A stretch of 64,000 bases of DNA from Candidatus Saccharimonadia bacterium (GTDB taxonomy: Bacteria > Patescibacteriota > Saccharimonadia > UBA4664), in the NCBI GenBank assembly GCA_038245115.1, contig JBBRSS010000005.1, forward strand, positions 3,141 to 67,140. The letters are read 5' to 3'. How positions within the stretch are numbered: the stretch's first letter is position 1; the number at the start of each line of letters is the position of its first letter. The translations under genes and the position numbers were made by a program. The notes beneath the pieces are model-generated. The model was not told where the DNA came from. It saw only the letters and a program-made list of their open reading frames with translations, and made no database searches. Below are positions 12,378 to 63,212 of this stretch, in pieces.

Positions 12378-12382
12378 ACACT

Positions 12383-18595: not shown

Positions 18596-18600
18596 CCGGA

Positions 18601-20828: not shown

Positions 20829-20831
20829 GTG

Positions 20832-36493: not shown

Positions 36494-36494
36494 A

Positions 36495-38705: not shown

Positions 38706-38707
38706 GA

Positions 38708-41179: not shown

Positions 41180-43050
41180 TATTGTTCCTCGCCTGCGGCC
41201 GGTTGGGGATTCTTGGTCCCGCCGGGATTAGTTGATATGAGCTCGGTCTCGGTATCGGACGCTAAGATGCGGATAATTACATGGTTGAGGCCGGCAAAGA
41301 AGAGGCCCTCGCCTACCGGGAATTGGCTGAGGCGGTTTTTCTCCCCTTCGGTGAGTTTGAAGGTCTCGGCGATGATGTCGGTGGCGCTGGGGGCCTGCTT
41401 GAGGAGGAGCTGGAGGGATGAGTTGGCGACTACGGCCCGGCCCATTTTGCTGCCCAAGAAGTCCTCGACGTCTTGCGAGATGGTGGTGAGGCCGAGGTAA
41501 TACTTACGGGCGCGTTTGGCGAGCGAGAACATGAAGCTGGCGGAGTCGTCATACTTCATGAGCTGCCAGGCTTCATCGACTATGAGCAGGCGTTTGCGGC
41601 GGTCGGATTTGACTTTGTTCCAGATGTAATTGAGCACAATGTACATACCGACGGGGCGGAGGGCGTCTTCGAGGTCGCGGATGTTGAAGACCAGGAAGGG
41701 GTTGTCGAGCTCTACGTTGGACTGTTCGGAGAAGATGCCCGAGAACGTGCCGGTGGTGTACTGGCGAAGGCGCTGGGCGAGACTGGCGCCGGTGCCGGTC
41801 ATAGAGGCAAGCGTGTTGTAGAGGTCGTTCATGGTAGGCGGGGTGGCGCTGTGGGTGAGGGGGTCACGGGTGATGCCGGCGCGGGCGTAGGTGTTGATGA
41901 TGGCGGCGTCTAGATCGGCTTCTTCGCCCGGGGTGAGGGGGCTAGAAAGGGTGGCGCCGGTGGAGGTGTTGACGGTAGCGCCACCCATCATTAGCCGCAG
42001 GAGGCCGTGGAGCGAGATAATGTTGGCCTGGAGGGCGTTGTCGGCCTCATCTTGGTCGAAGACGCGGGGAAGGTCGAAGGGGTTGATGCGGGTTTTGGAG
42101 GCTAGGCTGAGACGCAGGTAGGTGCCGCCGACGGCGTCGCAGAGCGGCTTGTACTCATCTTCCGGGTCGATGATGATGCATTCGACGCCCATCATGAGGC
42201 TGCGCAGAGCTTCCAGCTTGATGGCAAAAGATTTGCCGGCGCCGGACTTGGCGAAGACAACCATGTTGGCGTTTTCGAGGCTGAATCGGTCGAAGAGAAC
42301 GAGGCCGTTGTTGTGACGGTTGAGGCCATACAATATGCCCTCGTTGCGCGAAAGGTCGGATGAGGTAAAAGGAAAGCTAGTGGAGAGGGCGCCGGTGTTC
42401 ATGTTGCGCGAGATCTGCATTTGGTCGGTGCCGAGCGGGGTGGTGGAGTTGAAGCCCTGCTCCATTTGCATGGTGGTGGGCTTGGTGTAAACCAGTGATT
42501 GGCCAAAGATGCCTTCGATTTTACGGGTGACTTGAGTAAGGTCCTCGATGGTGTCGGCGTACATGGTGAGGTAAAGACCAAAGCGGAAGAAGCGCTCCTC
42601 CCCTACTTGGAGCTTGTCGCGCAGTTCTTCGGCGTCCTGAATGGCGGCTTCGAGTCCAGGGTCGCGCACGAGACCTTTTTCTTGGTTGATGGTGTGGCTG
42701 GCCTCGAGTTGGCCCATTTTGCGCTTGAGGTTGGTGAGTACAATTTGGCTTTCCACCGGGTAGATAAAGAGTGAGATATCGATGAGCTCATCAAGGTTAA
42801 TGATGGGCGATAACCAGCCGGTGAAGACTTGGCGGGGGTAACCGTAAACATAGATGGTTTTGCAGTAGCGCTTGCCGAGGCGCAAATAGGCTGACTCGAC
42901 TTCGATAGACGGCGGCGCAATGAGGTCGCGCATCGTGACGATACCTTGGCGATAGATGAGGTCGGCTTCGCGAGATTCCATGGTTTTTTGCATGTGCTCA
43001 AGCTGGGCCTGATCGATCTGGGGTGTCGATTTTTTGCCAAATAATCCCAT
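41179..43050 (-). CDS. virB4: VirB4/TrbE/CagE-family T4SS ATPase (ATPase domain portion)
   Basis: Walker A 'VVFAKSGAGKSFAIK', Walker B 'LLIVDEAWQLM'; 623 aa. Confidence 0.85.
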   Translation of the reverse strand: MGLFGKKSTPQIDQAQLEHMQKTMESREADLIYRQGIVTMRDLIAPPSIEVESAYLRLGKRYCKTIYVYGYPRQVFTGWLSPIINLDELIDISLFIYPVESQIVLTNLKRKMGQLEASHTINQEKGLVRDPGLEAAIQDAEELRDKLQVGEERFFRFGLYLTMYADTIEDLTQVTRKIEGIFGQSLVYTKPTTMQMEQGFNSTTPLGTDQMQISRNMNTGALSTSFPFTSSDLSRNEGILYGLNRHNNGLVLFDRFSLENANMVVFAKSGAGKSFAIKLEALRSLMMGVECIIIDPEDEYKPLCDAVGGTYLRLSLASKTRINPFDLPRVFDQDEADNALQANIISLHGLLRLMMGGATVNTSTGATLSSPLTPGEEADLDAAIINTYARAGITRDPLTHSATPPTMNDLYNTLASMTGTGASLAQRLRQYTTGTFSGIFSEQSNVELDNPFLVFNIRDLEDALRPVGMYIVLNYIWNKVKSDRRKRLLIVDEAWQLMKYDDSASFMFSLAKRARKYYLGLTTISQDVEDFLGSKMGRAVVANSSLQLLLKQAPSATDIIAETFKLTEGEKNRLSQFPVGEGLFFAGLNHVIIRILASDTETELISTNPGGTKNPQPAAGEEQ

Positions 43051-43784
43051 TATACTGGTGCCCCTGGGAGCGGCCCGCGAGGAGCGGAACCAGTACCCTT
43101 GGTGACGGCGGGCGCGCCAATTTGGGAGGTATCGATGAGCTTCTGGTTGGCGGCGACGTCGGGGTTGTACCAGGAATAGTAAAGGTCTACCAGTTCCTGG
43201 GTGCCGAGCGAGATGGCTCGAACGCCCATCTGGGCCATGCCGTTGGCGGCCAAAGCCATGCGCTGCGATAGTTCTTGCTTGTGTTTATGAAAGTCTTCTT
43301 CGCTGATGGTGATCATTGGAGTGGTTTCAAAGGCACCTTTGAGCTTGTCGATCAAGTTGGAGCTTTTTTGCACGGCTGAGGGCGGAAAATATGGGATGAC
43401 CACGTAGAATTGCTTGTCCATGATGTTTACCTCTTCCACGAGAGCACGAATATTGGCGATGTAGTCTTCCATGAGAACCCCAAGAAGTTCGTTGGGCTGT
43501 TCGGCGCGTAACTTATCGAGCTTTTCAAGGTAGTTAGAAATATCGATTTTCTGGCTCTTAATAGATATTTGTACGGGGAAGTGCAGGGAATTGAGAAAGC
43601 CCTGATAAGCCGACTCTACTGCTTCTTGTTCGCTCGGGTTCATGAGATCAAAGTTGATGGCACTACTGAGGATGACTCCGCGCAGGGAGCCATCTTTCAT
43701 TACCACAATTCCATCCTTGATCTCGGCGATCAGGAGGGTATCTTGGGCACTCTTTCCGCTGTGGTTACTGGCGTTAGCTGCCAT
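43050..43784 (-). CDS. VirB4 N-terminal-domain-like protein, apparently a split-off N-terminus of VirB4
   Basis: 'LLIAEIKDGIVVMKDGSLRGVILSSAINFDLMNPSEQEAVESAYQGFLNSL' resembles the conserved N-terminal region of Gram-positive-type VirB4 homologs. It is TAATG-coupled to the ATPase ORF. Confidence 0.45.
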   Translation of the reverse strand: MAANASNHSGKSAQDTLLIAEIKDGIVVMKDGSLRGVILSSAINFDLMNPSEQEAVESAYQGFLNSLHFPVQISIKSQKIDISNYLEKLDKLRAEQPNELLGVLMEDYIANIRALVEEVNIMDKQFYVVIPYFPPSAVQKSSNLIDKLKGAFETTPMITISEEDFHKHKQELSQRMALAANGMAQMGVRAISLGTQELVDLYYSWYNPDVAANQKLIDTSQIGAPAVTKGTGSAPRGPLPGAPV

Positions 43785-44583
43785 TTACGGGAATCTCCAA
43801 GGTTTGTCCGTTTGGCAGCTGAACCCGGCGGGTTGCCTGGGCAGCAAGCTGCGTCACCGTTAACTCATCACTCTGCGTTGCTAGTTGGATTATATCGTTT
43901 GGGGGCGCTACTGTCACGCCGCTTATGCTTGTAGGAGCTGGGGCACCTTTGGTGGGGCGAGCCACTTTGCCGGTCATTTGCTGGAGGGCTTCCTGGCGAA
44001 CATCTTCGGCCGAGGCACGGAGTAGTTCGGCCAGGTTGAGCGCGAGTGGGCTTTGTTGGAGGTCGAGGATGTCGTTGGGTACTTCGCCTGGTATGGGTGG
44101 CGGTGTTGGAACTATGCGGTCGGCGTGGGCAACAGAGGGCGCAATCGGGGATGTTTCCGGCACCTGAGGGTGGTTCCAGCCGCGCGAGTCGATGAGACTG
44201 GCGAGTTTTTCGAGCTCACTTCGAACTTCGTCGGGGTTACGTTGGGTAGCTTCGGCGGCGAGTACGGTGGCTTCCACGTGGAAGGTCTCGATGATGTCGT
44301 CTTTGGCCCAGGCACGGTGGCGAGACGTGGCAAAAAAGCCGACCATAGCAACCAATAGCTGCTCAAAACTCTGGCCGTCGCGATTGTAGAAGGCTAGCAG
44401 GAATAGTAGTAGTGCGGGCGGGAAGCCGATGACTATCAACAGTATGGGAACCTGGCGAAACAGCGCGAAACTGATGGCTGACCAACCAAAACCCATCAAG
44501 AAGTAAATAAACTCCTTGAAAGTTAACGGGCCAAGAATCTTGTCCTCGGCCTCAACATTTTGCGGCACCTTATACTGGCCCAT
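43774..44583 (-). CDS. VirB3/PrgI-like two-TM T4SS protein with a C-terminal extension
   Basis: 'NVEAEDKILGPLTFKEFIYFLMGFGW' followed by two TM helices, typical of VirB3-like proteins; 269 aa. Confidence 0.4.
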   Translation of the reverse strand: MGQYKVPQNVEAEDKILGPLTFKEFIYFLMGFGWSAISFALFRQVPILLIVIGFPPALLLFLLAFYNRDGQSFEQLLVAMVGFFATSRHRAWAKDDIIETFHVEATVLAAEATQRNPDEVRSELEKLASLIDSRGWNHPQVPETSPIAPSVAHADRIVPTPPPIPGEVPNDILDLQQSPLALNLAELLRASAEDVRQEALQQMTGKVARPTKGAPAPTSISGVTVAPPNDIIQLATQSDELTVTQLAAQATRRVQLPNGQTLEIPVNGS

Positions 44584-44640
44584 AAACTAGGAGCTCCACC
44601 TCGATATCACATTAAGCTTACGCTAAAACTAGGCGGGGGG

Positions 44641-47600
44641 CTAGGGGGTCGGAGGGGGCGGTTCTGGCGGAAGTACGGCGCCGTCTGAGTCGATATAAGC
44701 CTTGAGAATATCTGGCTGGCCGGTGCCGCCCTGTTTTTTTAGCCATTTATCTTCGGCTCCGGCCTTGTCACCTGCCTCCGCTATGAGCTTTATTATGTCT
44801 TTACCCGCTTTACCGTTTGATCCCTGTCGTGCGTTTAGAGCCCTGAGAGCCTTGGGGTCTTGCAGGTAGATCCACATTTGCGCATAGTCATCGGAATTCA
44901 GGTCCTTTAGAACCTGTGCGTTACTCAGAGATTGTTGGATGTTACGGGTGGATTCATCATAAATACTCGGCTTATCCACTCGTTTGGCGTATTCGAAATA
45001 GTTCTTTTTTTCGCCCCAACCGGATCGGCCAAAATCCGATGAACTGTAGCCATCGTAGGCTGCGTCTTCGGGCATAAAGAAGTCTTTGGAGACAGAGGAA
45101 CTGTTCTTTGATTGGATAATTTCCCAAAGTTCGCTGGCACGGCCGCCAAATCTATCGGGGTCGATTAAGCGGTCTTCGTTGCGCCCAAACAAATCTCTTT
45201 GGATTTGGCGAACTCTTTCTCGCCCGCTACCCGTTAGAGAAAGTCTTCCCATAAGCGCAATGGCACGATCCTCGTTTTCGGGTGTTAGTTTGTCGCCGTC
45301 TTTCAGGAGTGTTCTGATTTCAGCATCTTGGGCAGTAACTCCTTCTGGGCCTAAGTTGGCATTCTTAACAGTGTCGGTATGTGCGACTCCGTCAGCGTCC
45401 ATGAAGGTAAAGTCTTCGTTGCCAGCCTTTTCGACGCGATCACTTAGTATCTTTAAGCGCTCGGACTTGACTACATGGCCTTCGGCGGCTTGATAAGTTT
45501 GATTTAGCGATGCTCCGGGACGCGTAAGGTCGTAGCGGGCTCTGGCGGCGCCAGATTCGGCAGCTAATGTTGCTACGGAGCCTTCGGTTTGGGCGGCTAG
45601 GCGCTCTCGCGCATTGAGTCTGGTGGTAGAAGAATCAACCGCTTGATTGAGGGCGGCAGTTTGTGCTTGGTTGGAGGCTTCTGTGCGCATCGCCGATTCT
45701 TCTGCGGCTGTTGCGGCAGATGCGATTACAGCCTGTTCGCCTTCTATTGGATTTAATATTCCTGCGCTTGCGCTCGTGATTTTGTCGGCTGCTGCTCTGC
45801 CAGCTTTTTCGCCTCGTTCGGCACCGAGGGTATCTCGAGCCTTTGCGGCCTGGTTTCGTGCTTCCTTTTCGGTGAACAGGAGGGCTGCCGTATCCTTACC
45901 GTTCTTATCCTTTATCTTGGCAGTTTTAGCGGCTTTATAGGATTCTTCATAAGTGTCAGTGCGGGCGTTTTCATCGGCACGTTCATAGGCCGCTGCCTTG
46001 GCTTTTCGCAAGGGGGCTTCTCGGGCCTGCTCGATGGCCGCATCATATGCCTGGATAATACCCCTGTCTTTTGCAGTAGTCGTAGCAAATTCTGTGCTCG
46101 TAGCAATTTGTTTGGCGCGGGCGGCGACTTTGAGATTATCGGCGCGGACTTTCTGGGCCGCGGCCGCGGTGGTGATGCCGCCTACAGCAGCGGCGGCGGC
46201 AATTTCGGCATTGACGGCGGCGGCGGTAGTTTTGACGGCAGCGTCGGAGATGGCGGTGGTGCGTTCGGCGGCGTAGACGGCAGCGTCGGTGTGTTGGCGG
46301 GTGGAGGCGGCGGTGCCGGTGCGCACGGCGTTGACGGCGGCGAGGCGTTGAGCGGAGTCTTGCGCTGTTTTAGCTTTGGCGGTTTCGGTACCGGCGATTA
46401 CGTGGTCTGCCAGTCGGGGGGCAGGGTTGCCGTCACGCTTGGCTTTGGCGATATCCTCTTCCTCCTGGGCGATCTCTTGTTTTTGGGCTCCGATGCTCGT
46501 ACCGATACGTTTATTGGCTTCGCTTCGACTAGCTCTCATGGTGTCTGATGTCGACAGGTAGCCTTCGGGTGTGGCCTGGAAGTCGGCGCGGGCCTCACGA
46601 ATAGTGCGGGCGCTGGCTAGTTGTTCGCGGGCGGCTAGCGTTTCGCCGGTAACGAGTTTATTGAGATTTTCTTGTCCCGAAGCTGATGTGATGGCGTTGC
46701 GGGCGTTGATTTGGCCTTCGGTGGCCCCAATCTTTTCGCGTTCTTGGGTATGGGTGGCGGCGGACAGGTTTTGCAGTCGCATACTGCGGGCCTCTGCCAG
46801 ACTGACGCCACCGGCATGAGCGGCCTCTCGTGCATCGAGGGCGGCATTGGTGGAGACGTTGGTATTGGCGGTTTGTTGGGCGGCTACAACTTCTGCTACG
46901 CCGGTGTTGGTTTTGGCGGTAGTGACATTTCGCAGGCGCATATTCCGCGCGTCGGTAGCGCTGATACCGAGGTTTTTTTGCATAATCTTTTCCGCTGCGG
47001 CGCCGCCCTCAACTACGGAATTGATTCCAGCAAGCTTTTCCGAAGCTGAAAGAGCAGCGGTTGTCTGTGCGGCAGACACCTTTTTGGCGGCGCTAACGTA
47101 TTCGCTCGTACCCTTGAGGCTCTCGTTGAGTTTATCGCGCTCAATGTCGCCTTTGGCCGTGCCTGCGGCGGCTAAGTAGGTGTCACGGGTATTAATGCGT
47201 GCCTGGTTTTGTTTGTCTAACGCACTCGGCTTTCCGGCACCGTTGTAGCCCGCTAGGACGCCTTCGCGCGCACCGCGGTTGGCGGCTTTTTCATCGAGGA
47301 TGCTCTGAGTGGTGGACAGGCGGCGTTGGCGGAAGTCTTCGGGCCTAGCCTCTTTGGACATGCGGTTATCGGCATCAATTGTGCTTAATTCTTTATCGGC
47401 TTTGCCCACGGCTTCGCCGCGTCTTAGCTTTGCACTACCGGAACTTCCCGACAGGCCGGCTCGGCGCCAGTTCATGGCAGCTTTGCGGTTGAGAGCGGCT
47501 TTATGTAAGCCGTGGGCGTTTTTGGCATTGCTCTCGGCAATCTTGGCAGCGGCGACATTTTTGCGCTGGCGGCCTTCGGAAAGGTCTCTGGCGAGATCGC

Positions 47601-49278
47601 TGTCTTTGCCGTAGCGCTTGTCGACAGCGCCACCGAGCTTGCCGATGGCACCACTTCCCATTGCGAGGCCCTTGCCGGCGAATTTAAACGCGAACGGGAC
47701 GACAAATAGCGGGACGGTGAGTCCGGCGATGGCAAAGAATGGTGCAATCCAAGCGGCTCCCGTGAGACTACTGCCTGCACCGGCAGTCTTGGAAAATAGT
47801 CGACCGATCTCGATGAGCAGCATGATGATTGGATACAGCATGACGAGCTTGAAAAAGTTCTGCCACCATTCCCGGAACCATTTTTCGGTGTTGGGCAGAA
47901 TCCAGAGTAGGATCGCAAACGGACTGATGACAATAAGCATCAGAATTAATATTTTGCGGAATATCAGAGTGAGGAACACGCCGGCGAATGCGATGAGAAG
48001 CGAGACTATGGCACAAAAACCTAGGACGGTAACGGCCCCAACTAAAGCAAAGGTGCCAAGGCCGCCGCCGGTTCCAAGGAATAGTGTGGTGAAGTTGGAG
48101 GTAAGGTCGATTGTCGGCGTACCAATAACATCGGTCATGAGCGAGACGAGACCTTGGCCGAGTACGTTGCCGATGTCAATTAAGAAGGCGCAAAGCTGCC
48201 AGGAGAATGGCACCAGTATAGCTCCCGCCACCAAATGCGGTAAAACTTTTTTGATAGTGTAGTTGTCGAAGCCAATAGCCGTGCCGATGATGACGAGGAA
48301 GAATATAAGTATAAAGAAGACACTCGCGACATTTCTGAAAGCAGACCAAATGGCGTATACGGGTTTAACGTCAGTTTGGTTTTTGTCGAGCGGGGGCTCT
48401 TTGAGGAACGGTATGATGATGTCGTCACGGATTTGGTCGACTACACCTACAAGTGTAGTAATGGCGTCGCAAATCAGCCAAGTGAAACGGGCAGCCTCAC
48501 AGTTGACGGGCTTCTCTGCTGCGGACGTTGCGGACGTTGTGGGCGTTGTGGGCGAAGGCGGAGCGGTGCCCTGCTGGAGCGTAACGGAGTTGGTGCCGGC
48601 TGCTAGAACAACACCTGTTTTGGTGATGTTTATGCCAGTGGTTAAGCCGGTCGGGCTCCGGTATTGGCCGGAGGCTTTAACGGTGTATGTGCCCGGCTTG
48701 ATGCCACTAATCGAGAATGTGCCATTGGTGATTGGGGCCGGACTAGGCGTGCCGGAGTTGGGCGTAAGGGTAACGAAACCAGATTGCACACTTACGAACT
48801 GTTTGGCTGCAGGGTCGTAGAATTGTACCGTACCACTAAGACTGGCGTTTTTAACGGCTACCTTGATAGGGGTGACCGTAATGGTTCTTTTAGTCAACGT
48901 ATTGGATGGAGCGCACACGCCAGTTGCGCTGCCGAGTATTGTTCCCCAGGTTGTAGAGCTCGTAGGGCTACCGGTAGCGTCCGTTACCGAAATATTGAAG
49001 CGACGGATGTTTGTACAGGCGTCGCCAACGCCGGAATTAGTGAAGCCGATGGGGCCCGATTTCCAGGTCTGAGATGCGCTATCGAATGTGAAATTAATGA
49101 AAACAGGTTGTTGGGTAGTATCTACGCGTCTAGCCGATACTTCGACGTTGCTAACCTTGGGGTTTAACGTTATTTCGAATGATGCGTCTCCGGGGGCGCC
49201 CATAGCTGGAGCTGAAGACAACAAAACAGATATGCTCGAAAAAAGCGCGAGAAAAATTCCGAACCACCTACGTCTCAT
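44641..49278 (-). CDS. Giant VirB6/TrbL-like polytopic membrane protein (1545 aa) with an N-terminal secreted beta-rich domain and a ~700-aa Ala/Lys/Glu-rich low-complexity region
   Basis: Signal peptide. A ~6-8 TM block ('ISPFAILLWILPNTEKWFREWW') is VirB6/TrbL-like. A long A/K/E/T-rich tract follows, then a C-terminal globular domain. A 9-bp x4 tandem repeat at ~48523-48560 encodes a Pro/Thr linker. Confidence 0.5.
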   Translation of the reverse strand: MRRRWFGIFLALFSSISVLLSSAPAMGAPGDASFEITLNPKVSNVEVSARRVDTTQQPVFINFTFDSASQTWKSGPIGFTNSGVGDACTNIRRFNISVTDATGSPTSSTTWGTILGSATGVCAPSNTLTKRTITVTPIKVAVKNASLSGTVQFYDPAAKQFVSVQSGFVTLTPNSGTPSPAPITNGTFSISGIKPGTYTVKASGQYRSPTGLTTGINITKTGVVLAAGTNSVTLQQGTAPPSPTTPTTSATSAAEKPVNCEAARFTWLICDAITTLVGVVDQIRDDIIIPFLKEPPLDKNQTDVKPVYAIWSAFRNVASVFFILIFFLVIIGTAIGFDNYTIKKVLPHLVAGAILVPFSWQLCAFLIDIGNVLGQGLVSLMTDVIGTPTIDLTSNFTTLFLGTGGGLGTFALVGAVTVLGFCAIVSLLIAFAGVFLTLIFRKILILMLIVISPFAILLWILPNTEKWFREWWQNFFKLVMLYPIIMLLIEIGRLFSKTAGAGSSLTGAAWIAPFFAIAGLTVPLFVVPFAFKFAGKGLAMGSGAIGKLGGAVDKRYGKDSDLARDLSEGRQRKNVAAAKIAESNAKNAHGLHKAALNRKAAMNWRRAGLSGSSGSAKLRRGEAVGKADKELSTIDADNRMSKEARPEDFRQRRLSTTQSILDEKAANRGAREGVLAGYNGAGKPSALDKQNQARINTRDTYLAAAGTAKGDIERDKLNESLKGTSEYVSAAKKVSAAQTTAALSASEKLAGINSVVEGGAAAEKIMQKNLGISATDARNMRLRNVTTAKTNTGVAEVVAAQQTANTNVSTNAALDAREAAHAGGVSLAEARSMRLQNLSAATHTQEREKIGATEGQINARNAITSASGQENLNKLVTGETLAAREQLASARTIREARADFQATPEGYLSTSDTMRASRSEANKRIGTSIGAQKQEIAQEEEDIAKAKRDGNPAPRLADHVIAGTETAKAKTAQDSAQRLAAVNAVRTGTAASTRQHTDAAVYAAERTTAISDAAVKTTAAAVNAEIAAAAAVGGITTAAAAQKVRADNLKVAARAKQIATSTEFATTTAKDRGIIQAYDAAIEQAREAPLRKAKAAAYERADENARTDTYEESYKAAKTAKIKDKNGKDTAALLFTEKEARNQAAKARDTLGAERGEKAGRAAADKITSASAGILNPIEGEQAVIASAATAAEESAMRTEASNQAQTAALNQAVDSSTTRLNARERLAAQTEGSVATLAAESGAARARYDLTRPGASLNQTYQAAEGHVVKSERLKILSDRVEKAGNEDFTFMDADGVAHTDTVKNANLGPEGVTAQDAEIRTLLKDGDKLTPENEDRAIALMGRLSLTGSGRERVRQIQRDLFGRNEDRLIDPDRFGGRASELWEIIQSKNSSSVSKDFFMPEDAAYDGYSSSDFGRSGWGEKKNYFEYAKRVDKPSIYDESTRNIQQSLSNAQVLKDLNSDDYAQMWIYLQDPKALRALNARQGSNGKAGKDIIKLIAEAGDKAGAEDKWLKKQGGTGQPDILKAYIDSDGAVLPPEPPPPTP

Positions 49279-49385
49279 GTGTCATATTGTACAACGCTTA
49301 TGCTAAATAAATGAAGAACAAAATTTGGCTCCCCTTAAATATTAAGCACTAGAGTTTTTGACTTTAAGACCGATGGGTCGGTACA

Positions 49386-49931
49386 ATGCAGTCAATGAAG
49401 CGCTTACAAATCTTTCTATTTGGTATCTTGGTGGCGATGGTAATGGCGCCGGTTTTTGTCGATGCTGCTCCTGCAGCCATCCCTCTGGGCTGCCCCGGGA
49501 GTAAGTTGCAGGGTCCTATTTCGCCAACCGCCAATTACTCGTGCCCGGGTGGCGGTTCGGTAGTAAACGGGGTATATCATGCACCCGGAATCGTTGCGGG
49601 TGGCGGGCCGGTGTGCGTGGCGTTGCCCGTTTTTGCAGGCTCGCAGGGGTCGTGCGCGAAGGGTCAGGTGGAGATACCAAATAACCCTGGTGATGGCGGC
49701 GCCATCATTTACTATCTCAAGCTGGTCTTGAGGCTCCTTAACCTATTGATCGGGGGAATCATCATTCTTGTGTTGGTGATCGCCGGGATCCAGTACATAA
49801 CCTCGATGGGTGACCCCACTAACGTTAAGAATGCCAAAAAGCGGATATCTAACGCCGTAATTGCACTGATATTGTACCTGATGATGTTTGCTATTTTGAA
49901 TTTCTTGGTCCCCGGAGGAATTCTTTCGTGA
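49386..49931 (+). CDS. VirB2/TrbC-like T4SS pilin paralog 1
   Basis: Signal-like N-terminus (alternative start MKRLQIFLF at 49395), a Cys-containing region, and a C-terminal two-helix hairpin 'LIGGIIILVLVIAGIQYITSMGDPTNVKNAKKRISNAVIALILYLMMFAILNF'. Confidence 0.55.
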   Translation: MQSMKRLQIFLFGILVAMVMAPVFVDAAPAAIPLGCPGSKLQGPISPTANYSCPGGGSVVNGVYHAPGIVAGGGPVCVALPVFAGSQGSCAKGQVEIPNNPGDGGAIIYYLKLVLRLLNLLIGGIIILVLVIAGIQYITSMGDPTNVKNAKKRISNAVIALILYLMMFAILNFLVPGGILS

Positions 49932-50278
49932 CCAGCGTGTTGCAGCTTTTTCGTTTGGCGGCCAATGCTTGTGGTACTTCCACGGGCGTGCTGCCAAGCT
50001 TGTATGACAATATTCCATGTACCGGCGGTAATACTCCATCCATAACTACCATATCGCAGGTGGTAGTACTCATCGCGAATGTGCTGCGGATATTGATAGC
50101 AGTTTCGGGCTCACTCGCCGTGATAGCTATTTTGGTGTCGGCAATTTACTACATTACTTCGACCGGAGATCCGGCTAGAGTTAAGAAGGCAAAAGACATC
50201 CTGATCAATACCGCTACGGGTCTAATTCTTATTATTATGTCTTATGCGGCAGTTACGTTTATTGCGGGGAATTTCTAG
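49928..50278 (+). CDS. VirB2/TrbC-like pilin paralog 2
   Basis: Shares the architecture '...IAVSGSLAVIAILVSAIYYITSTGDPARVKKAKDILINTATGLILIIMSYAAVTFIAGNF'. GTG start overlaps the previous stop (GTGA). Confidence 0.55.
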   Translation: MTSVLQLFRLAANACGTSTGVLPSLYDNIPCTGGNTPSITTISQVVVLIANVLRILIAVSGSLAVIAILVSAIYYITSTGDPARVKKAKDILINTATGLILIIMSYAAVTFIAGNF

Positions 50279-50593
50279 ATGGTGGGGACGTGGTTGGTTG
50301 CGGCAACGCCGGTGGTAGTAAAGGTTACATGTGCTGAAATCGGAATCGGGAATTGTACGGATAAAACCAAGACTTTGAGCGCGGGTTTTACCAATATCGC
50401 CGGTGGCCTGGTTATATTAATTGGTATGTTGGCGGTGATTTTTATAATTATCAGCGGGTTGCAGATAGCATTATCGGCGGGGGATGCTAAGCGGTATCAG
50501 CAAGGGCTGGATGGATTGAAGTATTCGGTGGCAGGGGTGGTATTGGCGATAATGGCTTACGCAATAGTATCTTTTATTGCAAGCGGTTTCTGA
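50279..50593 (+). CDS. VirB2/TrbC-like pilin paralog 3
   Basis: 'LVILIGMLAVIFIIISGLQIALSAGDAKRYQQGLDGLKYSVAGVVLAIMAYAIVSFIASGF'. Confidence 0.55.
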   Translation: MVGTWLVAATPVVVKVTCAEIGIGNCTDKTKTLSAGFTNIAGGLVILIGMLAVIFIIISGLQIALSAGDAKRYQQGLDGLKYSVAGVVLAIMAYAIVSFIASGF

Positions 50594-50627
50594 TAAAGTA
50601 TAGTAGTAGAAAATAGAGGAGAGAAAA

Positions 50628-50945
50628 ATGAGTGCATTTACGATCTTACTGGGTTCGGCTTCGACTGTCATTACTTCGGGTGCGAATGCTGCCTGCGGTA
50701 GCTCGTGCAACAAGTCGCTGTTACCCGCAACATTTGCGACTATCGCAAATACGCTAACGTATCTAGTGGGCGCAGTATCGGTGATCATGATCATTGTCGG
50801 GGGTTTGCGCTACGTAACTTCTAACGGTGACCAGAAGAACGTGACAGCGGCCAAGGATACTATTCTCTACGCCGTTATTGGCGTGGTAGTGGCAATTGTG
50901 GCCTTCGCGGTTGTGCAGTTTGTGGCCACTCATATTGGAAGTTGA
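50628..50945 (+). CDS. VirB2/TrbC-like pilin paralog 4
   Basis: 'LVGAVSVIMIIVGGLRYVTSNGDQKNVTAAKDTILYAVIGVVVAIVAFAVVQFV'; AGGAGAG RBS upstream. Confidence 0.6.
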   Translation: MSAFTILLGSASTVITSGANAACGSSCNKSLLPATFATIANTLTYLVGAVSVIMIIVGGLRYVTSNGDQKNVTAAKDTILYAVIGVVVAIVAFAVVQFVATHIGS

Positions 50946-51012
50946 TTGCTTGTCGTAAGCGCTTATGCTAATGTCACATCAAACTGAATTTTTATTAAGG
51001 AGTTTATTTCCA

Positions 51013-51462
51013 ATGAGCATAGAAACGTTAGTAAAGAAAGTGGCGCTGTCGCTCCAGGCGCTCGTGTTGGTGTTGGGAGTAGGCTCAGCATCGGTAGTGG
51101 GCTTGGCGGTTTCCGCTGGACCGGCATATGGTGCCTCCACAAACTGTAACGACTCCACAGCGATATCAGACCCTTTAACGGCTGGTGCTTCGTGTTCGCA
51201 AGGCAATAGCCAGAAGGATAATTTGTTTGGCAACGGTGGAATTTTTACAATCATTGCCAATACCTTGATTTTCCTCGTGGGTGCGATTTCGGTAATTTTC
51301 CTCATTATCGGTGGACTGCGTTACGTAGTCTCGAACGGTGACTCCAAGAATGTTACGGCGGCCAAGGATACTATCTTGTACGCAGTTATTGGTGTCGTGG
51401 TGGCCGTGGTTTCCTTTGCGCTAATCCAGTTCGTCATCAAGGCCTTGAACCAAGCAAGCTAA
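51013..51462 (+). CDS. VirB2/TrbC-like pilin paralog 5
   Basis: Start at MSIETLVKK, with AAGGAG 11 nt upstream. The C-terminus 'LVGAISVIFLIIGGLRYVVSNGDSKNVTAAKDTILYAVIGVVVAVVSF' is nearly identical to paralog 4. Confidence 0.6.
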   Translation: MSIETLVKKVALSLQALVLVLGVGSASVVGLAVSAGPAYGASTNCNDSTAISDPLTAGASCSQGNSQKDNLFGNGGIFTIIANTLIFLVGAISVIFLIIGGLRYVVSNGDSKNVTAAKDTILYAVIGVVVAVVSFALIQFVIKALNQAS

Positions 51463-51478
51463 CAGTTCCGGCCTTTTA

Positions 51479-51506
51479 GAAGAGACCCGTAAGGGTCTTT
51501 TTTAAT
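51479..51506 (+). terminator. Rho-independent terminator after the pilin array
   Basis: AGAGACCC-GTAA-GGGTCT followed by TTTTTTAATGTTT. Confidence 0.6.
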
Positions 51507-51519
51507 GTTTAAGGGTGGG

Positions 51520-51558
51520 CCGACAAAGAATAACACCGCCAGTGAGGCGGTGTTATTG
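51520..51558 (-). terminator. Terminator-like hairpin downstream of hsp20
   Basis: Perfect 12-bp inverted repeat AATAACACCGCC-AGTGA-GGCGGTGTTATT. Confidence 0.4.
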
Positions 51559-51576
51559 GTGAGCTGGAGACTTGGG

Positions 51577-52014
51577 CTATACGACAGGTTTGACCTTGAT
51601 CTTCTTGACCTTGTCTTGGGCAACCTTGGGAATAGTCACCGTGAGGACGCCGTCCTTGAGAGACGCAGCGGCCTTCTCGGCAATCGTGGAGGTCGGCAGA
51701 ATGACTGAGCGGGAGAACGAGCCCCAGTAGCATTCCTGGACATAGTAGTGCTCGCGGTCAACTTCTTTTTCTTCGATGCGTTCGCCGCGAATAGTAACGA
51801 CGTCTTCGGCGACTTCGATATCAATCTTGTCTGGTGTAACCCCGGCGATGGGGGCCTTGATGACGACGTTTTCTTTGGTCTGGTAGACGTCGACGGCCAG
51901 CTGGCCTTCGGCCTCGGCCATCCAGTCTTCCTCACCCTCGACAGAGGTGTCTAGGAAGTCGTCTTGTAATACGTTTTCTTGATCGTTGAGGGGAGCGTTT
52001 TTCTTGCCCGGCAT
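51577..52014 (-). CDS. Hsp20/alpha-crystallin family small heat-shock protein
   Basis: 'WMAEAEGQLAVDVYQTKENVVIKAPIAGV...IDIEVAEDVVTIRGER...GSFSRSVILP...DGVLTVTIPK' alpha-crystallin domain. Start is the ATG at 52014 with GGAGG upstream; the track's longer start is spurious. Confidence 0.85.
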   Translation of the reverse strand: MPGKKNAPLNDQENVLQDDFLDTSVEGEEDWMAEAEGQLAVDVYQTKENVVIKAPIAGVTPDKIDIEVAEDVVTIRGERIEEKEVDREHYYVQECYWGSFSRSVILPTSTIAEKAAASLKDGVLTVTIPKVAQDKVKKIKVKPVV

Positions 52015-52130
52015 GCAGGTGAGCCTCCGCGTTAATGACTTCATGATTTTACAGGCCTGCTTTGTAATTTGCGATGCAGGTAAGTTTTCCCTATTATAGC
52101 CAAATGTTGCGTTGAAAGGCAAGCAAGGGA

Positions 52131-52793
52131 GTGATAATTGATCGATTATTGGAAATTTTAGCGCCGATTAACTGCTTGGGATGCGGATTCGAGGGTGCTG
52201 TAGTTTGTACAACATGCATGGATGGCTTGAGCGCGCCAAGCCGGACAATATGCTTTGGTTGCGGCAGAAATAGCCCCGGCGGAAAAACCTGCGAGCTATG
52301 CGTCAGACGCAGTTCGTTGGCCGGAGTGAGCGTGGGGGCGAATTATGACGGCACGGTGAAGGAGCTGATTCTGCAACTGAAGTTCCATCGTTTGCGCGCA
52401 GCAACCGAGGCGGCAGCAGAGATTATGTTGCGTACGGAGCCGTATTGGCCACGGGTTCACATGGTAACTAGTGTGCCGGTATCGGCGTCGCGCCAGCGTG
52501 AGCGGGGGTACAACCAGTCGGAATTGTTGGCTAAGGCTGTAGCGAGGCGAGTCGGCTTGCCCTACTCCGCGGCGCTAGGGAGACTCACTACGACGCATCA
52601 GATCGGTTTGGATCGCCGTAGCCGCTTCGAACAGGTTGAGAGTGCTTTTTATGCCAAGCGGGCCCTGATGGGCCAGCAGGTGCTGCTGGTGGACGATGTG
52701 GTGACTACTGGCGCAACTTTATCGGCTTGCGCCGGGATGTTGCGGGATGCTGGCGCCGCCGGGATTTGGGCTGTGGCCGTCGCTCGGCACTAA
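52131..52793 (+). CDS. comF: ComF-family (ComFC-like) phosphoribosyltransferase-domain protein
   Basis: N-terminal Cys4 zinc finger 'CLGCGFEGAVVCTTC...CFGCG' and a PRTase motif 'VLLVDDVVTTGATL'. Confidence 0.7.
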   Translation: MIIDRLLEILAPINCLGCGFEGAVVCTTCMDGLSAPSRTICFGCGRNSPGGKTCELCVRRSSLAGVSVGANYDGTVKELILQLKFHRLRAATEAAAEIMLRTEPYWPRVHMVTSVPVSASRQRERGYNQSELLAKAVARRVGLPYSAALGRLTTTHQIGLDRRSRFEQVESAFYAKRALMGQQVLLVDDVVTTGATLSACAGMLRDAGAAGIWAVAVARH

Positions 52794-54153: not shown

Positions 54154-54807
54154 CTAGTCGAAAAGACCTTTTTGGCTGTCTGTTTCTATTGCGGCGTCCA
54201 GAATGTCGTCGATGTCTTGGGTGGATAATGGTTTTACGCCTGCATCCAATAAGCGCATAAGTGCTAACTTGGCAGTCTCGCCATCGTTGTCTTCGTGGTT
54301 CATCTCGGCGTCATTAGTTTCGTAAAGGAGTGAGTTGGCGCGGAATCGGCTGGCATATCCTTCGGGCAATTCTCCTTGATCTTCAAGGTGTACGGCTCGG
54401 ACTACTTCGTCGGGAATAAAGCTTAAGGCAGCTATTAAATTTGAATGTCTGTCTAGGAATGAGTTAATTTTTGTCGCCTTAACATTTTGCTCATTTACGC
54501 TGCCGGACAATATAGGCTGAATTTCATCGTTCTCGGGGTCTCTTTTCAAATCGAAGTCGACTATTTTGGACTCCATGAGCCGTTCTAGCGCAATTCCTAT
54601 CGGATACGATGGATTCGCGACGAGCCGTGCAAGTTTATCGGCGGCGCTTTGGCCGCCATGGGTTGTGCTGTCTGGCGGCATAGGCATTTCGATCATGTTA
54701 ACGATATCCCCTTCTACAGCGTCATCTGGATTTTCGTAAATGGAATTTACAAATTCTTCGGCACGTTTCCAGTCTGGGCCTCGATAGGAGGGTTCGTACT
54801 CGCCCAT
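54154..54807 (-). CDS. Hypothetical acidic protein
   Basis: 217-aa ORF with no recognisable motif. Confidence 0.35.
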   Translation of the reverse strand: MGEYEPSYRGPDWKRAEEFVNSIYENPDDAVEGDIVNMIEMPMPPDSTTHGGQSAADKLARLVANPSYPIGIALERLMESKIVDFDLKRDPENDEIQPILSGSVNEQNVKATKINSFLDRHSNLIAALSFIPDEVVRAVHLEDQGELPEGYASRFRANSLLYETNDAEMNHEDNDGETAKLALMRLLDAGVKPLSTQDIDDILDAAIETDSQKGLFD

Positions 54808-57840: not shown

Positions 57841-58905
57841 CTACGCTGCTGAGCTCTGTTCTTTGTCGTTGTATGTTGGTCGCGCTTCGGCAGGTGCAGC
57901 AGCAGGTAACTGATATAGCTTATCTGCGCCTAGGTCTGCAACGATTTGACTGCGTACGGCTTCCATTTTGATCTTGTATTCTTCACGAGCAGCTACAACT
58001 TCAGAGGCTTTCTTGTCGAGCATAGCCTGTAGCATTTCCTTAGCAGCGTCACTACTTGCCGTAGCAAGCCGCTCCTCAAGTTTGATAATTTCATCGCCAA
58101 AGACTTCATCTGTAATTGTTTGCAGCTCTGCAACGCCTGCTTCTCCCACGGCAATTTTTTCCTCTACAGTAGCTTTTGCCTGCTCAAGGTCAGTAGAAAA
58201 CTTTGCGTATTCCGTTGCGTGTATACCACGAATGCCTTTTAATAGTCCGAGTGAGTCGTTTGTCTCGCGGAAGTTCTCGACAAGGTCAGGATGATTGTTG
58301 AGTAGATTATCGAAGTCTCCGCTCATTAGTAGTCCAGAACTATCTGTATAGCCACCGGTATCACGGCCGCGATGTACGCGGTTTCCGTCAACATCATGCA
58401 TGACTCGCTTATTCTCAACGCTGAACATCTCGTATTTACGAAAACGTTCCATCGCACTAACGTGTGTATTGGCGTCTGCTACGCCGCCAAGCGTTTGATC
58501 CAATCGCTCTGCAAGTGCGGCCATCGGCTCGGCTTTTATTGCTCCGTAAAGTTCTTTTTGCTCGCTTTTCTCTGGGGCAAGCTTTTGTATAACATCCTGA
58601 AGCGTACCTGCTCGCCGTCCATCTTTGTCATAGCCTTGCATTGCATCGAGGAACTTGTCTGCTCCATAACGATCAACCATTACTTGAAGTCCTGCACCTA
58701 TAATACTACCCTCAAGTCCTCGCTGTACCTCGTCTATACCATGTAGCTCGCCGGCTTTTTGTTGTAGGGTGTCAATATCGCTTTTTTCAAGAGTTTTCTC
58801 TTGCTCTAGAAGCATAAGTCCAGTTTCAACAGGCGCATTTTGTTCAACCGTGTCGCTAGTTTGCTCTTGGGGTTGTTCTGGTGTCATTCGGATGAGTTCA
58901 CTCAT
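57841..58905 (-). CDS. Hypothetical protein in the lower-GC segment
   Basis: 354 aa (MSELIRMTPEQPQEQ...). Predicted helical; no recognisable motif. Confidence 0.4.
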   Translation of the reverse strand: MSELIRMTPEQPQEQTSDTVEQNAPVETGLMLLEQEKTLEKSDIDTLQQKAGELHGIDEVQRGLEGSIIGAGLQVMVDRYGADKFLDAMQGYDKDGRRAGTLQDVIQKLAPEKSEQKELYGAIKAEPMAALAERLDQTLGGVADANTHVSAMERFRKYEMFSVENKRVMHDVDGNRVHRGRDTGGYTDSSGLLMSGDFDNLLNNHPDLVENFRETNDSLGLLKGIRGIHATEYAKFSTDLEQAKATVEEKIAVGEAGVAELQTITDEVFGDEIIKLEERLATASSDAAKEMLQAMLDKKASEVVAAREEYKIKMEAVRSQIVADLGADKLYQLPAAAPAEARPTYNDKEQSSAA

Positions 58906-59203
58906 GCTTTCCTTTTCCCTTGTAGTGTTATTTTAGTTGTTTGTTTTTGTTCTAACCTGCTAACAATATAGCATACGTAGGTAATATTGTCAAGGTAACG
59001 CAACCGTTCGGGGAGGTTCACTATTGAAATCACAAGAAACTAAATAGCCAGTAGTTTATATTCGGAGACATATCCTGTACTAGTTGGCCCATGTTGTTTT
59101 ACAATATATTCCTCTTCTAGGAGTATGTCAGTGTAGTCAGCCTCTAGGTGGCCGATTGTTAAACTCCTGGACTTTGTACCCCATTGCGGTACATTGTCCT
59201 TGT

Positions 59204-59983
59204 ATGGAATCAATCGTATCCCAACAGACACCACAGGTAGCAAAAACAGCACTGATTCGCTGGTGTTTGTACGCTCGCAAATCCAGCGAGCAAGACGAAC
59301 GCCAAGCCTTATCAATCGAGCAACAAATCAAGGAAATGCTACTACTTGCCGACCATTGGGGCATAGAAATAGCCGAAGTTCGCAAAGAGAGTCATTCCTC
59401 CAAAGAATCAGGCACTAGGCCGATCTATAACCGACTTATTAAGGACATTCAACTTGGCTACTTCAACGGAATTGTGACATGGGCACCTGATAGGTTGTCC
59501 CGAAATGCCGGTGACCTTGGTATTCTGGTAGATTTGATGGATCAGGGTAAGCTCGCGGAGATCCGCACTCACGGTCAAACGTTCACTAACTCGCCAAATG
59601 AGAAGTTCCTGCTGATGATTCTTGGCTCACAGGCCAAGCTAGAGAACGATAACAGAGGCCTCAATGTCATCCGGGGACTACACAACAAAGCCGCCAACGG
59701 CTGGAGACCTGGAGTTGCGCCGATCGGCTACCTGAATAATGGTCTCGGCGATGAGAAGATAATTGTCGATGAAATTCGATCACCGATCATTGTAGAAATG
59801 TTTGAGAGAGTCGCCAAACAAGCCTACACCGGCCGGGAAGTAAAACGCTGGCTCGATGGCATAGACTTCGTAAGCAGACATGGTAAACGCCTCGTCTTAA
59901 GCCATATTTACCGTACGCTAAAGAATCCCTTCTACTACGGCGAGTTCCAATACCCCAAGACCAGCGAAACGATGCATCACTGA
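59204..59983 (+). CDS. Large serine recombinase, N-terminal catalytic (resolvase-type) domain; the ORF ends at an in-frame TGA
   Basis: 'TALIRWCLYARKSSEQDERQ' has the Ser nucleophile in a YAR-x-SS context. 'GIVTWAPDRLSRNAGDLGILVDLMDQGKLAEIRTHGQ' is a resolvase motif, and the recombinase-domain motif begins at 'GWRPGVAPIGY'. The likely start is the ATG at 59204; the track begins at 59084. Confidence 0.6.
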   Translation: MESIVSQQTPQVAKTALIRWCLYARKSSEQDERQALSIEQQIKEMLLLADHWGIEIAEVRKESHSSKESGTRPIYNRLIKDIQLGYFNGIVTWAPDRLSRNAGDLGILVDLMDQGKLAEIRTHGQTFTNSPNEKFLLMILGSQAKLENDNRGLNVIRGLHNKAANGWRPGVAPIGYLNNGLGDEKIIVDEIRSPIIVEMFERVAKQAYTGREVKRWLDGIDFVSRHGKRLVLSHIYRTLKNPFYYGEFQYPKTSETMHH

Positions 59984-60568
59984 AAACATGCACCGATAAT
60001 CAGCAAAGATCTGTTTGACGAAGTCCAGATCCAGCTGACGGTAGCCCCAAAGGCTCCAGCAGGTACCAAAGAGTTTAGTTTCACTAGGATGATCAAATGT
60101 GGTGTTTGTAAAACGGGTGTTACAGCAGAAGAAAAGTTGAAGAAGCTCAAAACTGGCGAGATCAGACGGTATGTGTACTACCACTGCGGTAGGGCAAACG
60201 ATCTTGACTGCATCCAGCCATACATTCGCGAAGGCGAACTGATGATCGAGTTGCTTAATGTTATCGATGAGCTTGAAATAGATGAAATAGGTGCTCACCA
60301 ACAGTTCAAAGAAGAACTCATACGATATGAGAGGTTTATAGGCGTATTAGAGCAAAGTAACAATAGTAGTTCTCAAAAAACCAAGCCAACGATCGATCTG
60401 AAAGCATACTCAAAGTATGTGCTGCAACATGGAACTAAAGAAGAAAAGCGTGAGATTCTCCAATATGTAACCGGCGAATTATTCCTCAAAGATCAAAAGG
60501 TCTATGTTGAGCGAAAAACGAGGTCTAAAAAGTTTATCCCGGCCAGTTCGAATCCCATCGCCATCTGA
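59984..60568 (+). CDS. Large serine recombinase, C-terminal recombinase/zinc-ribbon portion, same frame as the N-part
   Basis: The region immediately after the TGA reads 'KHAPIISKDLFDEVQ', typical of large serine recombinases. It is followed by a zinc ribbon 'CGVCKTG...YYHCGRAND' and a coiled-coil. The track ORF starts at 60089. The 59984-60088 interval is 35 in-frame codons with no stop. Confidence 0.55.
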   Translation, partial: KHAPIISKDLFDEVQIQLTVAPKAPAGTKEFSFTRMIKCGVCKTGVTAEEKLKKLKTGEIRRYVYYHCGRANDLDCIQPYIREGELMIELLNVIDELEIDEIGAHQQFKEELIRYERFIGVLEQSNNSSSQKTKPTIDLKAYSKYVLQHGTKEEKREILQYVTGELFLKDQKVYVERKTRSKKFIPASSNPIAI

Positions 60569-60738
60569 ACGGGAATGGTCAAAATTCACGCACCACATAA
60601 CATTTTGCGGTAATTAAAAACGACCTTGTACCTTTAGTATGCACTTTAGGTGGACGGGTCGTTTTAGAACTTTATTCTTGGCGGAGCAGCCGGGTCAGGA
60701 ACTTTCCGACTGTCTCAAGGATTATATCCCTTAAGGAG

Positions 60739-60791
60739 GAAATGAGACAAATAAGACACTATAAAAAGGGGATTGTTTCGTGTCTCATTTC
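60739..60791. repeat. Palindromic element copy 2: GAAATGAGACA-N31-TGTCTCATTTC
   Basis: Reads GGAAATGAGACAAATAAGACACTATAAAAAGGGGATTGTTTCGTGTCTCATTTCGAAG. It shares its arms and a loop ACAC(C)TATA core with copy 1. Confidence 0.6.
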
Positions 60792-60924
60792 GAAGCCCTC
60801 GTAGCCTTGACTTGACTGAATCGCTATTACAACGCATGGGCTAGCGTTCTGACCTTTTAATCCGCTTAAGCTTGCATTATCAGATAGGGAGAGTAGTTAA
60901 TGGTGCCTTAAATAGGAATAAATC

Positions 60925-61088
60925 ATGGTACAAATTAGCAAACAGGATCTCGAAGAATTTAAGCGTATTACTAGGGAAATGCGTGACCTAGAGTTTCCCA
61001 ATGATGAAGCGGCAATGCGGGCAGCTCAGAGGCTAGTCCGTTTGTTCGAAAAGAGACGCACCCTAAAACTTCCAACTTTGAAGTCTTA
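60925..61088 (+). CDS. Small ORF (54 aa), speculative
   Basis: Reads MVQISKQDLEEFKRITREMRDLEFPNDEAAMRAAQRLVRLFEKRRTLKLPTLKS. A 9-bp stem hairpin GCACCCTAA...TTAGGGTGC at ~61055-61095 overlaps its stop. Confidence 0.2.
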
Positions 61089-61107
61089 GGGTGCGGCCCG
61101 ACCGAAG

Positions 61108-61743
61108 TCAGGCCTGCTCCTCGAGAATTCCTTTGGACCTCAAGAAGTCTTCGGGATCTTCGACCCCGTTCTCGATCAGGAGCGTGAAGGCGCAGCCAAG
61201 CGCCTCATCCATTGGCATTATAGCCAGTTCCTCGCAATCCTCAGCTGAGAGCACCTCGCCGCAGACATTGGCAAGTTGCTCGCTGGTTGGCTCTTTGGTG
61301 GCCACTTCTGGGATTCTTTCGCCGTCGGTTTGAACACCTAGTGCTTCTTCCAAAACCGGCATAACGTCTGCAAAGCCCATATTGTCGGCATAGGTCAGTG
61401 CATCCTGCAGATCTTCGGCGTAATTCTCGCTCCGGCCGCCATCACGACGAATCAGACCCATTTGCACAATCAGGCCAATCTGAGCTTTCGCAAAGTCATC
61501 ACCCTCTCGTTGATTGACTACCTCTTCGGCGAGCAAGTGGTAGCGAGTAGCCAACTCTTTGACATCAGCACCGGCCGACATGGCTTCAACCAGCTGTCCA
61601 CGGAGCTGGCCCAGTTCTTCCGTCTCAACAAAGCCCAATGTTTCAGGCAGAGCGTCAATGGCAGGTCTTGCCTCCATTTCGGGGCTCCTTTCAGAATCTG
61701 GTGGCTGTGAAGAATCAAAGCCTAATGGATGTTCATGCTCCAT
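61108..61743 (-). CDS. Hypothetical acidic protein downstream of the zinc-ribbon gene
   Basis: 211 aa, very acidic and helical. A 5-nt gap separates it from the upstream gene. Confidence 0.4.
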   Translation of the reverse strand: MEHEHPLGFDSSQPPDSERSPEMEARPAIDALPETLGFVETEELGQLRGQLVEAMSAGADVKELATRYHLLAEEVVNQREGDDFAKAQIGLIVQMGLIRRDGGRSENYAEDLQDALTYADNMGFADVMPVLEEALGVQTDGERIPEVATKEPTSEQLANVCGEVLSAEDCEELAIMPMDEALGCAFTLLIENGVEDPEDFLRSKGILEEQA

Positions 61744-61748
61744 AGCCT

Positions 61749-63194: not shown

Positions 63195-63212
63195 ATCTTT
63201 TACGATCCATGT

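Follow-up and report, generated by a model that had tools for sequence, protein, structure and literature searches.

We analysed a 64,000-nt stretch of DNA from a Candidatus Saccharimonadia bacterium (assembly GCA_038245115.1, contig JBBRSS010000005.1; hereafter the window) for a tandem array of five small genes, p1 to p5, which an earlier sequence-only reading had described as VirB2/TrbC-like pilin paralogs. Five tandem open reading frames (ORFs) on the + strand are present in the ORF listing where that reading had placed them. The array lies 6.3 kb from a VirB4-like ATPase gene of a type IV secretion system (T4SS) and is directly divergent from a giant VirB6-like gene. After the pilins come a terminator-like hairpin, an Hsp20 gene on the opposite strand, a ComF-like phosphoribosyltransferase gene and tRNA-Ser. 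The genes and their putative expression signals are as follows (window coordinates; bit scores are whole-protein scores against Pfam family PF18895, T4SS_pilin):

49358-49387, + strand: candidate promoter P1 (TTGACT 49358-49363, 18-nt spacer, TACAAT 49382-49387), with 10 of 12 consensus matches
49395-49931, + strand: p1, pilin of 178 aa, 36.5 bits; the array-leading gene in every case
49928-50278, + strand: p2, pilin of 116 aa with a GTG start, 30.5 bits
50279-50593, + strand: p3, pilin of 104 aa, 40.7 bits, with a sub-threshold TrbC match (15.3 bits)
50628-50945, + strand: p4, pilin of 105 aa, 43.9 bits, with a conserved ACG..C motif
50946-51002, + strand: candidate promoter P5 and ribosome-binding site, identified by conservation (TTGCTT 50946-50951, 17-nt spacer ending TGc, TAATGT 50969-50974, AAGGAG 50997-51002)
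51013-51462, + strand: p5, pilin of 149 aa, 31.2 bits; its start is 51013, not 50965
51476-51505, + strand: intrinsic-terminator-like hairpin with a U-run (minimum free energy -19.6 kcal/mol, z-score -3.8; 0 of 200 shuffles as good)

All five proteins (range 30.5-43.9 bits) exceed the curated gathering cutoff of PF18895, which is 26.6 bits, and the family was also matched by 35/35 pilins of the seven-species set described below. A gene call in public data, on a contig of identical sequence, likewise gives p5 149 aa. Across the whole 64 kb we found exactly five pilin-like ORFs; a sixth pilin resembling SEML1_0024 of Southlakia epibionticum was sought throughout the window and none was found, the 217-aa ORF at 54154-54807 not being pilin-like. 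Antisense ORFs within the array (e.g. 50471-50794 and 50979-51305) were treated as spurious; the identical public contig carries no gene call for them. A homologue search with p4 returned 676 relatives, nearly all of them PF18895 proteins, and those with names belong to Saccharibacteria/Saccharimonadia. Identity between most paralog pairs in the window is 27-42%, and the p4/p5 pair has 63% over 90 residues.

Each of the five proteins has two C-terminal hydrophobic segments in a Kyte-Doolittle scan (residues 101-141 and 149-178 in p1), and an AlphaFold2 model of p4, built with 16 homologues, places helices at residues 32-64 and 69-102 with a predicted local distance difference test score of 81-85. 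In the turn between the two hydrophobic stretches, S, G and D are invariant in an alignment of the five (S-x-G-D), the most divergent variant being SAGDAKRY of p3. With the PF18895 matches and the T4SS neighbours, these results bear out the hairpin-bearing pilin-family assignment, and the conserved turn, that had been proposed for the array. The Cys-containing N-terminal parts were likewise confirmed. A signal-like N-terminus had been claimed for all five proteins; by Kyte-Doolittle hydropathy, which is what we used here, it is clear in p1 (MKRLQIFLFGILVAMVMAPVFVDA) and p5, whereas the N-termini of p2-p4 are short, lack a basic n-region and do not exceed the hydropathy cutoff of 1.6. In p1, a predicted Sec-type signal peptide is followed by an exposed part, rich in Cys, Gly and Pro and containing four Cys, and then by the C-terminal hairpin. 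In p5, a long predicted Sec-type signal peptide with an A-x-A-type end (AYG/ALA/AYA/NAA) is accompanied by a conserved Cys pair.

A scan of GTDB species genomes yielded 79 loci, nearly all with tandem arrays of 5-8 pilin ORFs (mode 6). The size pattern of the window's five genes, flanked by the VirB6-like gene and Hsp20, recurred in six other species (L004, which is the same contig region as L002, and L005, L006, L008, L010 and L020); together with the window these make up the seven-species set of 35 pilins. Measured against the window, the six are 48-52% identical in ComF, 87-94% in Hsp20 and 29-64% in the N-terminus of the VirB6-like protein. In a neighbour-joining tree, the clades formed by array position had bootstrap supports of 1.0, 0.995, 0.785, 0.475 and 0.985 for p1 to p5, respectively, and p4 and p5 grouped together at 0.975. 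Because gene order is fixed and the orthologues of p1, p2, p3 and p5 each cluster with support over the seven species, we regard the paralogs as old. Lengths of p2-p5 are nearly fixed among these species, and in 7/7 the Cys count of p2, p4 and p5 is two; only p1 is indel-rich. Orthologues are 22-42% identical in their N-terminal parts and 45-76% in their hairpins. The most conserved hairpin is that of p5, whose orthologues are 76-77% identical on average. In most other Saccharibacteria arrays, the first gene finds its best match among the window's five in p1; best-hit mapping of these distant arrays was too noisy for positions 2-5, where p4 and p5 attract most matches, and only position 1 was stable. 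As a separate observation, the window p1 (49395-49700) carries about 30 extra residues (PAAIPLGCPGSKLQGPISPTANYSCPGGG...) and two additional Cys relative to its six orthologues.

Near-identity of the C-terminal ends of p4 and p5, in protein and DNA, had earlier been taken as a sign of recent duplication. A block of 20 residues (KNVTAAKDTILYAVIGVVVA) is indeed identical in the two proteins, but the DNA is only 71% identical over 191 nt by repeat finder and 79% over the best 103 nt, and the longest shared word is 17 nt. Over 67 gap-free C-terminal codons the genes are 73% identical in amino acids and 66% in nucleotides, with a synonymous divergence (dS) of 2.2; over 40 codons from GGLRY the values are 85%, 74% and 1.4, and over the 20 codons of the identical block they are 100%, 82% and about 1.4. 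Synonymous sites are thus saturated (dS 1.4-2.2), with a nonsynonymous divergence (dN) of 0.02-0.24. Over 72 hairpin columns, identity of the window p4 is 69% with its own p5 and 60-68% with p5 from other species, and 0.5% of bootstrap replicates pair the two window genes as sisters. With the same order kept in six other species, recent duplication does not hold. Judged from these comparisons, the p4/p5 duplication predates the seven species and the paralogs are old; the shared KNVTAAKDTILYAVIGVVVA block reflects purifying selection, not recency.

We then considered how the array is expressed. P1 has the TTGACT-N18-TACAAT form at 49358-49387 that the sequence-only reading had pointed out, and the p1 ATG at 49395 lies 7 nt past its -10 hexamer. 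A promoter scan of this kind found 7 promoter-like sites where 3.4 were expected, and a lone match means little. The arrangement TTGACT-N17/18-TACAAT-N7/8-ATG also occurs in L004, L005, L006, L008 and L010 (six of the seven species, the window included); variant layouts are TTGCAT-N18-TACAAT-N7-ATG in L020 and a form with TTGACA and TATGAT in L058. In each such array the ATG opens an MKR/MRR signal peptide, and the 7-nt spacer differs in sequence between species. A further ATG, at 49386, lies partly within the -10 hexamer; L006 lacks it. We assign the p1 start to 49395 because the promoter-to-ATG spacing is kept while the spacer drifts, and because the upstream ATG is gone in L006. The p1 transcript probably has no leader, or at most one or two bases of it; a near-leaderless p1 read from the second ATG, as first suggested from the window, thus has strong comparative support. 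Within the window the motif is not a widespread feature: it occurs 6 times, 2 of them at long ORFs. An inverted repeat in the P1 spacer (GACCgatgGGTC) was dropped as a candidate element, as it is not conserved in relatives.

Two side observations concern the same type of signal. The one other long ORF preceded by the leaderless motif in its general form TTGNNN-N16-19-TANNNT-N6-8-ATG (here TTGAGG-N18-TATACT-N7-ATG, 12345-12385) is a 595-aa ORF at 12383-14170 with no Pfam match. At the VirB6-like gene (start 49278, - strand; 49276-49291), TACAAT stands exactly 7 nt before the ATG, without a good -35 element, and the same position has TATAAT-N6-ATG in L004 and TATACT-N6-ATG in L005. Both divergent transcripts, that of p1 and that of the VirB6-like gene, may be leaderless.

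Downstream of p1, the signals are of other kinds. The p2 GTG overlaps the p1 stop codon (GTGA), with GGAGGA 8 nt upstream, within the 3' end of p1; a GGGAGG-type site and the overlap or abutment of stop and start are kept in the seven species, and translation of p2 is probably coupled to that of p1. The p3 start directly follows the p2 stop, and p4 has a strong ribosome-binding site, GAGGAG, at 50616-50621. The p4-p5 spacer has a common pattern in 7/7 species: TTGC(C/T/A)N, a 17-nt spacer ending TGn, TA(A/G)nnT, and AAGGAG about 10 nt before the ATG. In the seven-species alignment, TTTGC, TATG.TAA and the AAGGAG region are conserved. P5 fails a strict E. coli-type promoter scan and its case rests on conservation, by which it resembles an extended -10 promoter serving p5 alone. 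A scan of 49000-52200 with Rfam gave nothing meaningful.

One further sequence feature touches both ends of the array. An exact 12-mer, CGCTTATGCTAA, has only two copies in the window, at 49295-49306 in the VirB6-like/p1 intergenic region and at 50960-50971 in the P5 spacer. At up to 2 mismatches it has 14 matches versus 5.35 expected, a number reached by 0 of 100 shuffles. The second copy contains the palindrome TAAGCGCTTA; the 12-mer may be a shared regulator site or a product of chance.

The interpretation that we favor, with good but not full confidence, is that p1-p5 are the pilin set of a chromosomal monoderm-type T4SS, made of old and distinct subunits that would build a heteromeric filament or conduit toward a host bacterium, with p5 as the major subunit. 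The proposed sequence of events is as follows: (i) a leaderless transcript whose first bases are the p1 ATG would yield p1-p4, with coupled translation of p2 and p3; (ii) the five proteins would insert N-out/C-out as two-helix hairpins with a short charged turn (S-x-G-D...K), p1 and p5 through Sec, p2-p4 possibly with no cleavable signal; (iii) their Cys-containing N-terminal parts would lie outside as disulfide-stabilised exposed loops; (iv) the VirB4/VirB6/VirB3-like machine would extract the hairpins from the membrane and polymerise them; and (v) a heteromeric filament or conduit crossing the cell wall would result, with p5 abundant and p1-p4 as specialised subunits of lower abundance. Three features lead us to propose p5 as the major subunit: its conservation, which is the highest of the five, an extended -10 promoter of its own and a strong ribosome-binding site.

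The closest described system is that of Southlakia epibionticum ML1, whose T4SS has been described as Gram-positive-like (Wang 2023, PMC10633639). As in the window, tandem PF18895 genes diverge there from a giant VirB6-like gene, and SEML1_0006-0013 follow the order wall hydrolase, VirB4, PrgI, VirB6-like. Hsp20 on the opposite strand, ComF-like and tRNA-Ser follow in both, and dnaA, dnaN and recF are nearby. In S. epibionticum, SEML1_0014-0019 are six small + strand pilin genes, each growth-defective and then essential, so that every one of them is needed to grow on the host; beyond them lie Hsp20, a K02242 (ComFC) gene and tRNA-Ser (PMC10633639, Table S1). Unlike S. epibionticum, which has six pilins and a non-essential SEML1_0024 downstream, the window has five pilins and no extra one, and its p2-p4 are shorter (104-116 aa) and without an obvious signal peptide.

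At a broader scale, 441 arrays of 2-11 VirB2-like genes have been reported in 383 assemblies, most abundantly in Saccharimonadia (Quinonero-Coronel 2025, PMC12102498), and six VirB2-like pilins were noted in a 2025 FEMS review (PMC12857230). The window array fits the definition used in the former survey (2-11 tandem PF18895/PF04956 genes near virB4, with low paralog identity), although the maximum paralog identity stated there is 54% and p4/p5 reach 63% over 90 residues. That survey suggests versatility for different hosts, whereas the constant gene order and the clades by array position described above point to fixed, distinct subunits; promoters, leaderless transcripts and orthology of pilin arrays go unmentioned in it.

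Relatedness to VirB2/TrbC proper is more distant. Like R388 TrwL and Agrobacterium VirB2, the window proteins are small, have a leader in some cases, consist of two helices with a short charged loop and are encoded beside VirB3 and VirB4. A T4SS pilus is normally built from one VirB2 together with VirB5. Unlike diderm systems of that kind, the window has five distinct paralogs in a monoderm, MPF-FATA-like machine, and Cys pairs that would be extracellular. At an expectation value (E) of 0.05 or less, TrbC (PF04956) was matched by 12 of the 35 pilins, the best at E 4.3e-6, which suggests superfamily-level relatedness and not PF04956 membership. Calling the array VirB2-like is accordingly a superfamily-level statement that leans on Pfam models.

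Several results weigh against the interpretation we favor. (i) All five window proteins miss the PF04956 gathering cutoff of 27.9 bits, and only p3 matches that family (15.3 bits, E 0.024). (ii) In hhalign, the 35-pilin profile reached a probability of 0.1% against R388 TrwL alone and of 0.3% (E 0.21) against a 5-sequence TrwL profile from plasmid records; the latter alignment is in a sensible register, with helix, loop containing KDT, and helix. (iii) A Foldseek search of the Protein Data Bank (PDB) with the p4 model gave nothing at E of 0.001 or less, its best matches being generic helical hairpins (ATP synthase c subunits), and a profile search of PDB sequences returned no pilin and one chance match, a proteasome subunit. 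(iv) The p4 clade is weakly supported in the tree. (v) Among more distant Saccharibacteria, the strict leaderless motif was found at 7 of 55 arrays and is missing upstream of 48. (vi) The filament is a prediction from the genes, and the major-subunit role proposed for p5 is drawn from conservation and expression signals.

A more specific version of this interpretation assigns roles to positions: the subunits would be fixed, ancient and non-interchangeable, p5 a separately transcribed major subunit, p1-p4 leaderless minor subunits, and the variable domain of p1 a part for initiation or host contact. We offer it tentatively and consider it possible, if doubtful. By analogy only, type IV pili and type II pseudopili also use several non-redundant small subunits encoded in fixed order, one of them conserved and probably abundant and the rest specialised. 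Unlike those systems, the window proteins are hairpins instead of a single N-terminal helix with a globular head, have no prepilin peptidase motif and differ in fold and machinery. We know of no T4SS pilus for which the logic of a minor-pilin complex is established.

The strongest competing explanation is that the hairpins remain within or directly above the membrane, as a stalk or as lining of the translocation channel across the wall, without forming an extended filament. Gram-positive T4SSs normally have no pilus (PMC10633639, PMC12102498), no clear cleavable signal is seen in p2-p4, and five non-redundant subunits would suit a complex of defined stoichiometry. We also detected no VirB5-like tip protein among the scanned ORFs of the window. 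However, the family is classed with VirB2/TrbC pilins, 12 of the 35 pilins match TrbC, and one subunit having a strong promoter to itself agrees with a polymer in which a single component is abundant. This explanation partly overlaps the filament or conduit that we favor, and a short conduit and a long pilus are not distinguished by the present evidence; as an account of its own we think it unlikely.

A second possibility is that the array generates variation: its genes would be interchangeable, recently duplicated and diversifying versions of a single pilin that vary the exposed surface or suit different hosts, as for the VirB2 paralogs of Anaplasma or Bartonella, an idea also raised for such arrays by Quinonero-Coronel 2025. 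Ongoing diversification of the exposed pilin portion had been read from the window, and it finds weak support in that exposed parts are less conserved than hairpins, in the indels of p1, in array sizes of 5-8 across the class and in the 20-residue block shared by p4 and p5. But the lengths of p2-p5 and the Cys pair of p2, p4 and p5 are conserved, the order is fixed with 4 of 5 positions forming supported clades in seven divergent species, synonymous sites of p4 and p5 are saturated, and the window p4 is no closer to its own p5 than to those of other species. The genes also share one operon with coupled translation, and the six S. epibionticum pilins are individually essential. We therefore find a diversity generator quite improbable. 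The N-terminal variation would be ordinary relaxed constraint on exposed loops, and the exposed part of p1 may really be changing.

That the five are unrelated small membrane proteins (for example holin-like proteins, transporter subunits or immunity proteins) resembling pilins in hydrophobic composition is scarcely credible: weak sub-threshold matches to DctQ, cytochrome bd subunit II, TctB and Hol-Tox, some automatic Joint Genome Institute names ('cytochrome bd-type quinol oxidase subunit 2') and the want of any solved pilin with significant structural or profile similarity speak for it, and against it stand the PF18895 scores of all five, the invariant S-x-G-D turn, linkage to VirB4, VirB6 and PrgI across 79 species loci, and the essentiality pattern that S. 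epibionticum pilins share with other T4SS genes. All matches of the five proteins outside PF18895 fell below their own cutoffs.

Pilin arrays in Patescibacteria T4SS loci are already published, and the window adds no new kind of system. What is new, in a modest way, is the fixed order with position-specific orthology, the candidacy of p5, which has a promoter to itself, as major subunit, and a p1 start that is conserved and probably leaderless. The T4SS and its pilins are essential for epibiotic life in the one Saccharibacteria species tested, and the paralogs look like a constant set of distinct subunits, not like a generator of diversity. The two conserved promoters, one of them putatively leaderless, are concrete targets in cultivated relatives.

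The T4SS cluster divergent from the array occupies 34952-49278 on the - strand and was assigned by Pfam scans together with precomputed Pfam matches on identical or orthologous genes:

44641-49278, - strand: giant VirB6-like protein (TrbL_3), 1545 aa, with a weak Pfam TrbL match of its own
43774-44583, - strand: PrgI/VirB3-like protein, by Pfam
43050-43784, - strand: TraC-like protein, 244 aa; no significant Pfam match in the window scan, with PF26593 precomputed on an orthologue
41179-43050, - strand: VirB4-like ATPase, by Pfam
38708-41179, - strand: 823-aa protein with no significant Pfam match, a conserved part of the cluster
36495-38705, - strand: wall hydrolase, 736 aa (GH3, phage tail lysozyme and VanY D,D-carboxypeptidase domains), by Pfam
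34952-36631, - strand: 559-aa protein with no significant Pfam match, a conserved part of the cluster

The TrbL_3 label of the VirB6-like gene is the one precomputed on the identical public contig, where the gene is cut at the locus end (1520 aa). Pfam scans of 36 window ORFs revealed no relaxase or coupling protein. The 736-aa hydrolase is an unusually complete wall-cutting module; its S. epibionticum counterpart SEML1_0006 has a lysozyme and a glucosaminidase domain. Directly upstream of the cluster lie dnaA (29796-31277), dnaN (31572-32681) and recF (33613-34680). The pilin operon is about 18 kb from dnaA, which fits the published origin-proximal T4SS loci of Patescibacteria, where the T4SS is often near dnaA (PMC12102498).

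Two further regions of the window are unrelated to the pilins or lie apart from them. The first, at 14164-22836 on the - strand, encodes family 4 glycosyltransferases, an FkbM methyltransferase and a Wzt-type ABC ATPase with a Wzt_C domain, and has the look of surface-polysaccharide synthesis and export. In the second, beyond 58 kb (58000-64000), GC content falls to 0.465-0.489 and GC skew shifts from about +0.17 to about 0. A serine recombinase gene (Resolvase and Recombinase domains, 59084-59983) lies at this skew boundary, which may mark an integrated element or a skew switch point.

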